Below are positions 37,258 through 41,940 of a DNA stretch of 64,000 nucleotides, one piece after another. Positions within the stretch are counted from its first letter, which is position 1, and every line of letters begins with the position of its first letter. Source of the stretch: Gammaproteobacteria bacterium. Lineage in GTDB: Bacteria; Pseudomonadota; Gammaproteobacteria; CBDBNL01; JAAOII01. The notes below the pieces were generated by a model. It searched no databases. It had not been told where the DNA came from and saw only the letters and a list, made by a program, of their open reading frames with translations. The translations under genes were made by a program, and so were the position numbers. Location: contig OZ242372.1 in NCBI GenBank assembly GCA_965209035.1, forward strand, positions 640,001 to 704,000. The letters are read 5' to 3'.

Positions 37258-39219
37258 TTACTTACGGTTGCTTGCGGTTTGTTTGTGGCTTTTGATGAGA
37301 TCATCCACAACGGAGGCGTCGGCAAGAGTGGATGTGTCTCCCAGTTCTTCGTGTTCGCCCGTTGCAATTTTGCGGAGAATGCGGCGCATGATTTTACCCG
37401 AGCGGGTTTTGGGCAGTGCGGGTGTCAACAGCAGAATATCCGGTTTGGCAATCGGGCCAATTTGCTCGCGCACAGTTTGAATTAATTCTTCTCGCAGAGA
37501 ATTGGTGGGTTCCGCTCCCAATACCGGAGTAACATACGCATAAATACCCTGCCCCTTTATCTCGTGCGGAAAGCCGACCACGGCTGCTTCCGCCACCGCC
37601 GGATGGGCCACCAAGGCACTTTCTATTTCGGCTGTCCCCAGTCTGTGGCCGGAAACATTAATGACATCGTCCATACGCCCGGTAATCCAATAGTAACCGT
37701 CTTTGTCGCGTCTTGCCATATCACCGCTAAAATAGTAGTTTTCAAAAGTACTGAAATAGGTTGTCACAAAGCGTTCGTGATTGCCGTATATGGAGCGGGC
37801 CTGACCGGGCCAGGAGTCGCTGATCACCAGAGCGCCGTTCGCTTCGCCGGTCTGTTCCTCTCCTTTTTCATTCAATAATGCGGGCCGGACGCCGAAAAAC
37901 GGCAGGGTCGCCGAGCCGGGCTTTAAGGGGGTGGCTCCGGGCAAGGGTGTTATCATATGACCGCCGGTTTCGGTTTGCCACCAGGTGTCCACTATGGGAA
38001 GTGTGTTGTTGCCCAATACTTTGCGATACCAACGCCAGGCTTCCGGGTTGATTGGCTCGCCCACTGTTCCGAGGACCTTAAGACTCTTGAGAGAACATTT
38101 TTCATATATTTTGTCCCCTTCGCGCATCAAGGCGCGGATCGCCGTCGGTGCCGTATAAAACGATGCGACCTTGTGTTTGTCGATGATCTCGCCCCAGCGT
38201 GCGGAAGTCGGATAGTTGGGCAGGCCTTCATACATTAAAGTGATCGCGCCGTTGGCAAGTGGTCCGTAGACAATGTAACTGTGGCCGGTAACCCATCCCA
38301 CATCGGCACCACACCAATAGACATCGCCGTCATGATAGTCAAAAGTATATTGATGCGTGATGGAACACCATACCAGGTAGCCGCCAATGGTATGCATTAA
38401 TCCCTTGGGCTTGCCGGTAGAGCCGGATGTATAAAGAATAAAAAGAGGGTCTTCCGCATTTAGAGGCTCCGGTGGGCAGTCCGCACTTTGTTCGGCAATC
38501 AGCTCGTGATACCAAACATCATTAATAGTATGGCCCGCGCGAAAAGGAATGTCGGCGTTTGTTGCCCGGACGACCAGGGTGTGCTTCACTGTTTTGGTTT
38601 TTTCCAGAGCCCTGTCCACATTTTGTTTGAGCGGAATACGTTTGCCACCGCGCACACCTTCGTCCGCGGTAATCACCAGGTTGCTGTCGGAATCATTGAT
38701 GCGTCCGGCCAGGGCTTCGGGCGAGAACCCGCCAAAAACAACCGAATGGATGATCCCCAGTCTGGCACAGGCAAGCATGGCGACAGCGGCTTCGGGGATC
38801 ATTGGCATGTAAATGGTGGCAACATCTCCTTTTTTGTAGTTAAGCGATTTTAGACCGTTCGCCAGTTTGCATACCTCTGCGTGCAATTCTTTGTATGTGA
38901 GAGTCGCGTCTTTGTCGGGTGTGTCTCCCTCCCAAATGATGGCGACCTGATCGCCGCGTTTTGCCAGATGTCGGTCCAAACAATTATGGCATGCGTTAAG
39001 GACGCCGTCTTCAAACCATCGGATGTCTACCTTGTCGCGTTGAAACGATGTGTTCTTAACCTTGCCGTAAGGTTTAAACCAGTCCAATCGTCTGCCTTGC
39101 TCGGCCCAAAATTTTTCCGGGTCCGCCAAGGAAGCGGCGTACATCTCTTTATATTTCTTTGCGTCTATCCAGGCCTTTTTTGCCAAAAGGGCATCCGGTA
39201 AGTAAATGTTTTGACTCAT
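37258..39219 (-). CDS. acs: Acetyl-CoA synthetase
   Basis: [46 protein letters not shown]. Confidence 0.97.
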
Positions 39220-39330
39220 AAATAATCTCCTTTTTTGTTTTGTTTATTAGTATCAATTTATTTCGGTTATTTTACCAAAATTTTTTTGGTTTTGCCCTAT
39301 TTTTGAATATGGTCTTGCTGTCTCTTTTTG

Positions 39331-39465
39331 ATGCATAGTCTCATAAAGGTTCTGGACTCTGAGTTTGGTATTGTGCGTCCTCAGATCAAGCAGCCGGAGG
39401 TTCTGTCGGACGGGTCGAAAATAGATCCGGCAACGGGTCTTCGGTATGTGGAGCTAGATGAATGA
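39331..39465 (+). CDS. Putative 44-aa peptide encoded at the IS left end (copy 1)
   Basis: MHSLIKVLDSEFGIVRPQIKQPEVLSDGSKIDPATGLRYVELDE; 3 of 4 non-IR differences from copy 2 are synonymous. Confidence 0.45.
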   Translation: MHSLIKVLDSEFGIVRPQIKQPEVLSDGSKIDPATGLRYVELDE

Positions 39466-40630
39466 AACGGGCAAGAAGGACGGATAGCTGTTTTGCTCTC
39501 ACCGCCGCAGACAGCGGAGGCTTGTTGTTGATAAAACTGTCTAGGTGTATCCGCTGGCGAGACGGTACGGTTTGTGAGGGCAGCCGGACTGCACATTGGA
39601 AATGAGAGGAACACGTTTACGCTACATTGGTTATCGCGTGCGCGGTTTCAATAAAATGGTGGTTTTAGCAAACAAATATTCAAACATGTCTAAAACCACC
39701 AAAATCAAACTGGACACCTTAGCGTTCGCGCGCAAACATGGTGTCGCGGCGGCGCTGGATCATGCCGGGATCAGTCGTGCTACATTCTACGAGTGGCAGC
39801 GGCGTTTCCGTGAAGGCGGGGTCGATGAACTGGCGAACAACTATGGGTATCAGCCCAAGCGGTCCAACACCTGGCCACCGGCACTGATTGACAAGATCCG
39901 GTCTTGGCGACAAGAGCGACCGAATATCGGTCCCAATAAACTGGTCTGCTTGTTACCCGAATGGTGCCAGCAGCAGGGGCTGCCGGCACCCAGCCGGTCA
40001 ACCATTGCCCGCATCATCGCTGATGCACCGGGTAAGATGCGGCACCAGTCATCGCTGACCGAGCAGAAGAACCCGCGGCAAGGTGCTCCTCGCGAGCGCA
40101 AGGACATCTGCTTTGTTGCGGGCCGGAGAGGTGAATGTGTTGCCTTTGATACGCTCGTCCGCATCGTCGATGGCCGGCGCTTTTATTGGCATGTCGGCAT
40201 TGACCTATTTTCCCGCTTCTCACTGGTCAGTGTCGACACCTCCGCTGCTTCGGCCAGTTCCGCCCGGCTCTTTACCGCCATGCAAAACATACTCGGCACT
40301 CGGATCGAAAAAGTCCTCACCGATAATGGCAGTGAGTTCGCCAAAGACTTTCACCGGATCGTGACCGCAAACGGCAGCACCCACTGGTATACTTATCCAA
40401 GGAAACCGCAAATGAATGCACACTGCGAACGGTTTAATCGCACTCTCTGGGAAGAGTTCGGTTGTCATATGCGGCATCTCTTGGTTAAGGATATGCCGGC
40501 ATTCAACGCCAAACTCATCGAGTGGTTGGCTTGGTATAATCTTGAACGTCCCCATTATGCTCTCAAACAACTCTCGCCGATCCAATTTTTGCAAAAACAA
40601 CAAAAGTCCAGAAATGGGTGGGACCATACA
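39332..40630 (+). mobile_element. IS481-family insertion sequence, copy 1 (~1299 bp)
   Basis: Imperfect terminal IRs: left TGCATAGTCTCA..TTCTGGACT, right (reverse complement) TGTATGGTCCCA..TTCTGGACT; single DDE transposase. Confidence 0.88.
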
Positions 40631-40642
40631 ATTTGTGCATGA
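39602..40642 (+). CDS. IS481-family DDE transposase (copy 1)
   Basis: HTH (ISRATFYEW), second HTH (PSRSTIARII), D (AFDT), D (TDNGSEF), E (ERFNRT), YN.ERPH; stop lies beyond the right end. Confidence 0.92.
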   Translation: MRGTRLRYIGYRVRGFNKMVVLANKYSNMSKTTKIKLDTLAFARKHGVAAALDHAGISRATFYEWQRRFREGGVDELANNYGYQPKRSNTWPPALIDKIRSWRQERPNIGPNKLVCLLPEWCQQQGLPAPSRSTIARIIADAPGKMRHQSSLTEQKNPRQGAPRERKDICFVAGRRGECVAFDTLVRIVDGRRFYWHVGIDLFSRFSLVSVDTSAASASSARLFTAMQNILGTRIEKVLTDNGSEFAKDFHRIVTANGSTHWYTYPRKPQMNAHCERFNRTLWEEFGCHMRHLLVKDMPAFNAKLIEWLAWYNLERPHYALKQLSPIQFLQKQQKSRNGWDHTICA

Positions 40643-40769
40643 TCTCATAAAGGTTCTGGACTCTGAGTTCGGCATTGTGCGTCCTCAGATCAAGCGGCCG
40701 GAGGTTCTGTCGGACGGGTCGAAAATAGATCCGGCAACGGGCCTTCGGTATGTGGAGCTAGATGAATGA
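40635..40769 (+). CDS. Putative 44-aa peptide encoded at the IS left end (copy 2)
   Basis: GTG start; (M)HDLIKVLDSEFGIVRPQIKRPEVLSDGSKIDPATGLRYVELDE; overlaps the stop of transposase 1. Confidence 0.45.
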   Translation: MHDLIKVLDSEFGIVRPQIKRPEVLSDGSKIDPATGLRYVELDE

Positions 40770-41934
40770 AACGGGCAAGAAGGACGGATAGCTGTTTTGC
40801 TCTCACCGCCGCAGACAGCGGAGGCTTGTTGTTGATAAAACTGTCTAGGTGTATCCGCTGGCGAGACGGTACGGTTTGTGAGGGCAGCCGGACTGCACAT
40901 TGGAAATGAGAGGGACACGTTTACGCTACATTGGTTATCGCGTGCGCGGTTTCAATAAAATGGTGGTTTTAGCAAATCAATATTTAAACATGTCTAAAAC
41001 CACCAAAATAAAACTGGACACCTTGGCGTTCGCGCGCAAACATGGTGTCGCGGCCGCGTTGGATCATACCAGGATCAGTCGTGCTACATTCTACGAGTGG
41101 CAGCGGCGTTTCCGTGAAGGCGGGGTCGATGAACTGGCGAACAACTATGGGTATCAGCCCAAGCGGTCCAACACCTGGCCACCGGCACTGATTACCAAGA
41201 TCCGATCTTGGCGACAACAGCGTCCGAACATCGGTGCCGGTAAACTGGTCTGCTTGTTACCCGAATGGTGTCAGCAGCGCGGGCTGCCGCTGCCCAGCCA
41301 ATCAACGCTCTCTCGCATCATTGCCGATGACCCGGATAAGATGCGGTGCAAACCATCGCGGTCCGTGCCGAAACGCCCGCGGCATGGTGCTCCGCGCGAG
41401 CGCAAGGACACCCGCTTTGTTGCGGGCCGGAGAGGTGAATGTGTTGCCTTTGATACGCTCGTCCGCATCGTCGATGGCCGGCGCTTTTATTGGCATGTCG
41501 GCATTGACCTATTTTCCCGCTTCTCACTGGTCAGTGTCGACACCTCCGCTGCTTCGGCCAGTTCCGCCCGGCTCTTTACCGCCATGCAAAACATACTCGG
41601 CACTCGGATCGAAAAAGTCCTCACCGATAATGGCAGTGAGTTCGCCAAAGACTTTCACCGGGTCGTGACCGCAAACGGCAGCACCCACTGGTATACCTAT
41701 CCAAGGAAACCGCAAATGAATGCACACTGCGAACGGTTTAATCGCACTCTCTGGGAAGAGTTCGGTTGTCATATGCGGCATCTCTTGGTTAAGGATATGC
41801 CGGCATTCAACGCCAAACTCATCGAGTGGTTGGCTTGGTATAATCTGGAACGTCCCCATTATGCTCTCAAACAACTCTCGCCAATCCAGTTTTTGCAAAA
41901 ACAACAAAAGTCCAGAAATGGGTGGGATCATACA
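40636..41934 (+). mobile_element. IS481-family insertion sequence, copy 2 (direct tandem, 1304-bp period)
   Basis: Left TGCATGATCTCA, right ..TGGGATCATACA; separated from copy 1 by ATTTG. Confidence 0.88.
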
Positions 41935-41940
41935 ATTTGA
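40906..41940 (+). CDS. IS481-family DDE transposase (copy 2)
   Basis: Same motifs as copy 1; TGA stop supplied by the flanking ATTTGA. Confidence 0.92.
   Translation: MRGTRLRYIGYRVRGFNKMVVLANQYLNMSKTTKIKLDTLAFARKHGVAAALDHTRISRATFYEWQRRFREGGVDELANNYGYQPKRSNTWPPALITKIRSWRQQRPNIGAGKLVCLLPEWCQQRGLPLPSQSTLSRIIADDPDKMRCKPSRSVPKRPRHGAPRERKDTRFVAGRRGECVAFDTLVRIVDGRRFYWHVGIDLFSRFSLVSVDTSAASASSARLFTAMQNILGTRIEKVLTDNGSEFAKDFHRVVTANGSTHWYTYPRKPQMNAHCERFNRTLWEEFGCHMRHLLVKDMPAFNAKLIEWLAWYNLERPHYALKQLSPIQFLQKQQKSRNGWDHTI

Follow-up and report, generated by a model that had tools for sequence, protein, structure and literature searches.

The window analysed here, a 64,000-nt stretch of contig OZ242372.1 (assembly GCA_965209035.1, forward-strand positions 640,001 to 704,000) from a gammaproteobacterium of the lineage JAAOII01, contains two copies of an IS481-like insertion sequence (IS) in direct tandem, and each copy carries two short open reading frames, ORF1 and ORF2, ahead of its transposase gene (Table 1). 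Our subject is ORF1, a frame that runs to the very left tip of the element and that, judged by how it varies between copies, is probably a real coding sequence under selection. The left terminus of the IS reads TGCAT(GA/AG)TCTCATAAAGGTTCTGGACT and the right one ...AGTCCAGAAATGGGTGGGAYCATACA, within terminal inverted repeats of about 26–27 nt (TG...CA); the left repeat (IRL) has TGYATGATCYCA and TTCTGGACT in common with the reverse complement of the right repeat (IRR) at 40605-40630, with a one-base offset. ATTTG stands on either side of copy 2 (40631-40635 and 41935-41939) as a 5-bp target duplication, and copy 2 therefore inserted right beside the right end of copy 1, whose own left flank TTTGA is found again on the right behind one extra A. 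The 2.24-Mb genome holds 20 full copies at 94–100% identity, 14 of them with a perfect 5-bp target duplication and two more with one that is offset by a single A, together with one degraded full-length copy (85%) and dozens of end fragments. As in IS481 elements, the terminal repeats and short target duplications go with one transposase frame, which in all 20 copies spans 343 codons inside the IS without a frameshift, and the protein matches the Pfam domains rve_3 (8e-14), rve (4e-8) and HTH_32 (2e-9). The transpos_IS481 model (NCBIfam NF033577) is the best family match at 178.7 bits, with IS3 next at 105 bits, but stays below its curated cut-off of 224, so the element is a distant IS481 member or belongs to a sister group.

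Table 1. Features of the tandem IS pair and positions of further copies and relics of the element
Feature	Position	Strand	Remarks
IS copy 1	39332..40630	+	1299 bp, IS481-like, subfamily tip TGCATAGTC; ends from 20-copy alignment
IS copy 2	40636..41934	+	1299 bp, about 95% identity to copy 1
Spacer ATTTG	40631..40635		5 bp between copy 1 IRR and copy 2 IRL; left target duplication of copy 2
IRL of copy 1	39332..39358	+	TGCATAGTCTCATAAAGGTTCTGGACT; spans ORF1 codons 1-9 and first base of codon 10
IRR of copy 1	40605..40630	+	also codes the transposase end ...SRNGWDHT, without stop codon
ORF1 of copy 1	39331..39465	+	44 codons + TGA (39463-39465); first base from flank; ATG 39331-39333 (flank A + TG)
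ORF1 of copy 2	40635..40769	+	44 codons + TGA (40767-40769); GTG 40635-40637, G being the last spacer base
ORF2 of copy 1	39462..39605	+	47 codons; ATG overlaps ORF1 stop (ATGA), TGA overlaps transposase ATG (ATGA)
ORF2 of copy 2	40766..40909	+	predicted frame
Transposase of copy 1	39602..40642	+	343 codons in IS + ICA + stop from spacer and copy 2 IRL
Transposase of copy 2	40906..41940	+	stop TGA in flank
Subfamily B copies	contig C1: 141644, 526244, 935100, 1066482, 1178027, 1584533, 2091880		
Relic left ends with 10-nt repeat	contig C1: 1140600, 1240614, 1372131, 1484425, 578907, 1371315, 1494181, 1134026		

A first-pass annotation, made from the letters of the window alone, had described in both copies a 44-codon frame beginning one base outside the terminal TG (A+TG at 39331, G+TG at 40635), and this is what the sequence contains. 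ORF1 ends in ...DGSKIDPATGLRYVELDE (...YVELDE*) in both and is intact by alignment in 20 of 20 full copies; a scripted measurement returned 44 codons in 19, having wrongly anchored the copy at 459400 to a flanking relic, and the genome search itself had listed 18 copies. Of the three frames that enter the IS from outside, two are closed at positions 5–7 and 13–15 and only that of ORF1 is open. The completion of the start codon by the flank or junction, to which the same annotation had drawn attention, did not stand as a designed feature: the base ahead of the terminal TG is A in seven copies, T in five, G in three and C in five, giving ATG, GTG or TTG in 15 of 20 copies against 15 expected (3/4) for random flanks. 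The flank-completed start codon is chance, and because the flank base is random the start is not a designed feature.

The evidence that ORF1 encodes protein comes from the pattern of its changes. Outside the inverted repeat the two window copies differ, as had been read beforehand, at four sites, three of them synonymous (39366 TTT/TTC, 39369 GGT/GGC and 39438 GGT/GGC) and one that exchanges Q for R (39392, CAG/CGG). Across the 20 copies this part of ORF1 carries nine changes, seven synonymous and two non-synonymous but conservative (Q/R, E/D), and they distribute over codon positions 1, 2 and 3 as 0:1:8. The other two frames show no such pattern, with four synonymous versus 10 non-synonymous changes in ORF2 (codon positions 4:6:5) and 28 versus 40 in the transposase (25:21:35). 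Five of the nine changes come from the 18 copies that the first-pass annotation had not seen; all five are at third positions and four are synonymous, and they therefore form an independent replicate of the coding pattern. Finding eight of nine changes at third positions has a probability of about 0.001 in the one pre-specified frame, and when all six frames were compared the 7:2 ratio appeared only in the ORF1 frame and in the antisense frame that has the same wobble positions, the ORF1 frame alone being stop-free. An antisense ORF of 77 aa (39381-39614) was rejected as the source of the pattern, since two of the nine sites lie past its stop; moreover, all five variable sites of 39466-39571 are non-synonymous in it and the region of its ATG is shifted in a second subfamily, B (7 of the 20 copies), by a 5-nt indel.

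We observed the same bias at greater depth by adding 13 diverged relic left ends, all from this one genome. Parsimony changes fall 27:22:47 by codon position in the body of ORF1 and 31:33:29 in the 40 nt past its stop, so that the third-position signal ends at the stop codon. In nine of nine pairwise comparisons with diverged relics, the ratio of non-synonymous to synonymous substitution rates (dN/dS) was lowest in the ORF1 frame (0.10–0.72), as compared with 0.61–3.72 and one undefined value in the other two frames. The coding constraint proposed in the first-pass annotation, for which dN/dS in other copies had been named as a check, was thus borne out both by the additional copies and by the relics. 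Folding z-scores of the leader show no excess of RNA structure (−0.01 and +1.15), and Rfam yielded nothing at a family's gathering score, the only match being a sub-threshold microRNA model on a hairpin within the transposase gene; RNA structure therefore does not explain the conservation of ORF1. Neither ORF1 nor ORF2 matches a Pfam family at E values up to 1, hence no helix-turn-helix (HTH) like that of InsA or OrfA in other IS families was detected, and no usable protein-atlas match was found.

ORF1 is the first of three frames that follow one another closely. We place the transposase start at ATG 39602 and not at the later ATG 39689, a prediction based on the N-terminus MRGTRLRYIGYRVRGFNK, which aligns with homologues (38–45% identity) and, from residue 6, with ISKpn28. 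A frame joined to the transposase upstream of 39602 was rejected, as it is interrupted by TAG 39485, TAG 39542 and TGA 39575. With this start the leader is 270 nt long (39332-39601), and ORF1 and ORF2 tile it throughout. All 19 copies measured have the TGA of ORF1 overlapping the ATG of ORF2. At the other end of ORF2, its stop overlaps the ATG of the transposase (12 copies) or falls 1 nt short of that ATG (the seven copies of subfamily B), despite the 5-nt indel between the subfamilies. By the balance of its changes, ORF2 itself is without apparent constraint at the protein level. In subfamily B, the 5-nt insertion and substitutions close to it give rise to a canonical GGAGGTGAT that lies 5 nt ahead of the transposase ATG, whereas the remaining 13 copies, both window copies included, have no Shine-Dalgarno sequence there. 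A scan of 39200-41100 for promoters and terminators, limited to the sigma-70 consensus on the promoter side, found none in the leader or across the native junction between the two copies.

The right end of the IS adds a further connection, as in none of the 20 copies does the transposase frame reach a stop within the IS. Where copy 1 abuts copy 2, its transposase frame ends at TGA 40640-40642, within the IRL and ORF1 of copy 2, and the upstream right end supplies GGGTGGGA 11 nt before the junction GTG. Both features had been recorded in the first-pass annotation, as had the rule that a spacer of 3n+1 bp would fuse the transposase in frame to ORF1; the arithmetic is correct, the last transposase codon ending at 40630 and the ORF1 frame beginning one base ahead of the IS. 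With a 5-bp spacer, the IRL stops the incoming transposase at IS positions 5–7, 2 nt past the NTG codon. Among 63 left-end-like sequences of the genome, positions 5–7 read TGA in 30, TAA in 14, TAG in 11 and TCA in eight, and this excess of stops (55 of 63) is suggestive of a stop that has been kept. At four places in the chromosome an IRR directly abuts an IRL; three of these junctions have spacers of 5, 3 and 1 bp, the fourth lacks a base, and 3n+1 spacing is not preferred among them. The 1-bp junction, which creates a fused frame of 76 aa, arose by insertion into a relic end. A search of 108 raw reads, which came from a related strain, gave no circle-junction reads, and contigs drop such rare forms. 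Of the listed sequencing runs that contain the stretch, none is recorded as RNA.

Taking these observations together, we tentatively favor the possibility that ORF1 is a selected frame of this IS lineage and the first link in a relay of leader ORFs that gates transposase synthesis. The relay seems the most likely mechanism, and we infer it because ORF1 cannot start by itself, is open to the IS tip and is connected with the transposase through stop/start overlaps. Ribosomes would reach the IS tip from upstream and translate ORF1, either by reading in from the flank or, at an IRR–5 bp–IRL junction, by terminating on the abutting stop-less transposase at IS positions 5–7 and re-initiating 2 nt back at the NTG. 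They would then pass from ORF1 to ORF2 via the first ATGA overlap, ORF2 acting as an unconstrained 47-codon spacer frame, and from ORF2 to the transposase ATG 39602 via the second. As the amino-acid sequence appears to be selected, the peptide or the nascent chain would matter too.

Several observations weigh against this reading. ORF1 has no start codon of its own, its first codon being N+TG with N taken from the flank, and there is no Shine-Dalgarno sequence within the IS ahead of codon 1 or of an internal GTG (codon 15), although host genes on both sides do carry AAGGAG sites. The constraint rests on small counts, nine changes, and on DNA of one genome. Subfamily B has its own Shine-Dalgarno sequence before the transposase and should therefore need no relay, yet it keeps ORF1 equally well, and since a relay requires only an open frame, the conservation of the peptide is left unexplained by it. 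ORF1 is also broken in some relics: one relic lineage carries a tandem repeat of a 10-nt unit (TTCCCGGCGG-like) in ORF1 that amounts to insertions of 7 nt (one locus), 17 nt (five loci, at different sites) or 27 nt (two loci), of which only the 27-nt form keeps the frame and the 7-nt and 17-nt forms lead to an in-frame TAG at codon 28. If these frame-broken elements were active, ORF1 was dispensable to them; they are dead today and thus indicate only that decaying elements do not keep the frame or that this lineage could do without it. Other relics have a 21-nt deletion (of DPATGLRY) and a 6-nt insertion, both in frame. Frame breakage in other copies had been named beforehand as an outcome that would speak against coding, and it is confined to relic lineages. 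Outside the genome, the ORF1 peptide was found in none of 400 other genomes of the phylum, and the one outside relative found is a 37-aa predicted protein from another assembly (P0002) with the 21-nt deletion.

One alternative is that ORF1 is a non-coding by-product, a chance-open frame in a leader kept for DNA-level reasons such as transposase binding sites or a promoter, with the third-position bias as an accident of small samples. We consider this unlikely, but of the alternatives it fares best. In addition to the missing start codon and Shine-Dalgarno sequence and the six relic loci with a broken frame, it can draw on the fact that an open frame alone is uninformative, as 27 random substitutions leave ORF1 open in 48% of simulations, and on relatives that function with leaders of 48–57 nt. 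It can also draw on the next five variable sites downstream (39478-39568, in the stretch 39466-39571), all of which come out as synonymous when the transposase frame is extended upstream beyond its ATG, despite TAG 39485 and TAG 39542 in that frame, so that a run in phase can arise without coding; we treated this run as chance, the deeper lineages showing no periodicity there (31:33:29). A by-product does not readily account for third positions taking eight of nine changes, for the replication of this pattern on five new changes and in deep lineages, for a signal that ends at the ORF1 stop codon, or for an ORF2 and a transposase that are less constrained than ORF1.

Further searches placed the element among its relatives. 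Against 1.84 billion representative proteins, ORF1 gave five matches, namely a junk repeat, this genome, the 37-aa relative and two weak repeat-motif matches, and against 5.8 billion proteins it gave two matches of near length and none longer. The repeat-motif matches are to two proteins of 269/270 aa whose repeat SDPxEIDPTTGISYVEQ, the last unit of which lies near the C-terminus, resembles ORF1 residues 22-41. No relatives of the IS DNA were detected in four other genomes of the family, in plasmids or in viral contigs. Scanning genome contigs for transposase relatives gave five loci, one of them close (68%) but without a left end, and scanning metagenomes gave six, the best at 41% identity. 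Two other assemblies encode transposases of 69% (P0007) and 86% (P0010) identity. Where leaders could be compared they were short, had a strong Shine-Dalgarno sequence and contained nothing like ORF1 (57 nt in ISKpn28, 48 nt in the metagenomic locus L083), and about 215 nt of the leader are therefore specific to this lineage. Literature searches listed no paper on such an ORF in IS481 elements.

The view taken in the first-pass annotation, that ORF1 is a free-standing accessory or regulatory peptide, appears improbable to us. Such a peptide would act in trans on transposition, and its translation would begin either at the junction N+TG with the help of GGGTGGGA or at the internal GTG, codon 15 (codon 14 ATG in other lineages). 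This view would fit with purifying selection at the protein level, with the presence of GGGTGGGA before the junction GTG, and with copies of the left end, 79% identical, in which an ORF1-like frame is open and ends in ...DE* at the same place before an unrelated gene of 292–314 aa. Against it, no domain was found, the flank base is random, the 11-nt spacing from the Shine-Dalgarno sequence is long, the internal GTG/ATG has no Shine-Dalgarno sequence, and several lineages, as well as P0002, have lost DPATGLRY through the 21-nt in-frame deletion. Somewhat more doubtful still is that the IS ends would act as a translational switch, in which re-initiation on ORF1 at a junction, relayed to the transposase, would raise the output of transposase and peptide specifically on junction intermediates and a 3n+1 spacer would yield a fusion isoform.

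It is very unlikely that ORF1 is the captured 3′ end of a host gene, acquired when a shorter ancestral IS gained a left end lying about 220 nt further upstream, together with the last ~30 codons of that gene. The short leaders of relatives, with ~215 nt specific to this lineage, and the resemblance of residues 22-41 to a repeat near the C-terminus of 269/270-aa proteins would suit such an origin, but the likeness covers only 16–20 residues with an E-value of 2e-5 summed over four repeats, and a passive origin leaves purifying selection after the subfamily split unexplained. No gene with a repeat of the SDPxEIDPTTGISYVEQ type exists in this genome. The slimmest chance belongs to a junction-specific C-terminal extension, made only from circles or dimers when the stop-less transposase reads through a 3n+1 spacer into ORF1: the lack of a stop in 20 of 20 copies, the ORF1 frame as the sole one open from the IS tip, the natural 1-bp junction with its 76-aa fused frame and the junctions with 1–2 bp spacers formed by IS2, which likewise makes 5-bp duplications, are in its favor, but both intact tandem junctions (here and in ISKpn28) have 5-bp spacers with the IRL stop at positions 5–7, 55 of 63 left-end-like sequences have a stop at this triplet, the 1-bp junction came from insertion into a relic end, and homologous transposases end directly after W..HT.

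The relay that we favor can be set against known systems. ISKpn28, an IS481-family element in tandem on a Klebsiella plasmid (NZ_CP045678.1, locus L092), likewise encodes one rve-type transposase with an N-terminal HTH between TG...ACA ends, its transposase reads to the last IS base (...HT) without a stop of its own, and its tandem pair has a 5-bp spacer and a stop, TAA, at positions 5–7 of the next copy's IRL. However, in its short leader a strong AAAGGAGGG precedes the ATG and neither ORF1 nor ORF2 has a homologue, whereas the IS described here has the 270-nt leader with a 44-codon frame that appears to be selected, and the two transposases are only 33% identical. In IS911, IS2, IS30, IS21 and IS256, abutted IRR-IRL ends form a junction promoter, with the −35 from one end and the −10 from the other, that exists only in the transposition intermediate. 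The first-pass proposal resembles these in that an expression signal is created by abutted ends, but it is translational, and the sigma-70 consensus scan found no −35/−10 pair across the abutted ends here. InsA of IS1 and OrfA of the IS3 family start from signals of their own, carry a DNA-binding HTH and are joined to the frame downstream through programmed frameshifting. ORF1 shares with them the position of a short frame upstream of the catalytic one and an overlap in phase −1, but differs in having no domain match or start, in being separated from the transposase by ORF2, and in that the HTH lies within the transposase itself. Leader ORFs involved in translational coupling, or encoding arrest and leader peptides, normally have their own initiation site. 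As in coupled leaders, ATGA overlaps chain ORF1, ORF2 and the transposase, these overlaps are kept across copies, and the leader peptide is conserved while the spacer ORF is not; unlike them, ORF1 is open to the physical end of the IS and its initiation depends on context. Compared with small coding ORFs in general, ORF1 shows purifying selection in frame and lacks a start and ribosome-binding site of its own.

We also noted additional features of the element and its derivatives. Within the N-terminal coding region of the transposase lies a perfect 12-bp hairpin (TGGTGGTTTTAG ... CTAAAACCACCA, with a 21-nt loop) at 39657-39701 and 40961-41005, which encloses the internal ATG 39689, has its three variable sites (39673, 39674 and 39681) all in the loop, and is the source of the spurious sub-threshold Rfam microRNA match. 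Just ahead of its transposase start, the copy at 1140600 has another 10-nt repeat (CATTACTGCA). Fifteen internally deleted derivatives of 94–354 bp retain both ends (contig C1, e.g. 835233, 1349664, 428157, 2139591 and 1250487), two of them with perfect 5-bp duplications (AATCT, CCAAA). Because their deletions are unique, except in a pair with the same flanks (320420/320991), they may reflect decay in place and not mobilized miniature inverted-repeat elements, and for this reason we rejected them as proof that the ORF1 body is dispensable in cis. The sequence AAGTG forms the right flank of copy 1178027 and the left flank of the inverted copy 1182575, neither of which has its own matching duplication, and this sharing is, by its sequence, the signature of a putative IS-mediated inversion of the ~3.2-kb segment between the copies (C1 1178027-1183875).

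Parts of the left end also occur apart from the IS. A left-end module of 131 nt (79% identity), in which the ORF1-like frame is open, directly precedes three paralogous genes (L089 200-331, which is C1 260199-260330, and L090 with two tandem units 1133 nt apart) that encode membrane proteins of 285–314 aa with GVRTELKGDIA repeats and no Pfam match. Here the ORF1-like frame ends in TAA, overlapping the same ATG from which ORF2 begins in the IS, with AAGGAGG coming next; the module looks like a domesticated IS end used as a leader. A conserved promoter-like element of ~54 nt (CTTGACTTCGGAAAG...TAGATTTTTAAAAACTCTTGTATTTATAAGG; C1 260148, 563020, 408123, 737803, 1613439 and 1620742) stands at one and the same junction position before three old left-end relics and elsewhere before unrelated genes, and could be either a repeated insertion hotspot or part of a duplicated composite unit. 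Finally, solo 40-nt left-end relics (TGCATAATCTCAGAAAGGTTCCGGACGCTGAG...) at C1 158883, 159931, 160999, 162052 and 458387, with a spacing of ~1.05 kb, precede a tandem gene array (MNKRTDLKL...), and one unit of that array carries the full copy at 459400 as an insertion.

IS481-type elements are usually described as one-gene elements, and little is known of how they keep transposase low and couple its production to the transposition intermediate. In the IS described here, a small frame that is more conserved at the protein level than the transposase, and that cannot start by itself, is wired to the transposase by overlaps. If ORF1 is untranslated, the case would serve as a caution on how far a few third-position changes in a row can lead astray; if translated, ORF1 would represent a context-dependent control module of a new design.

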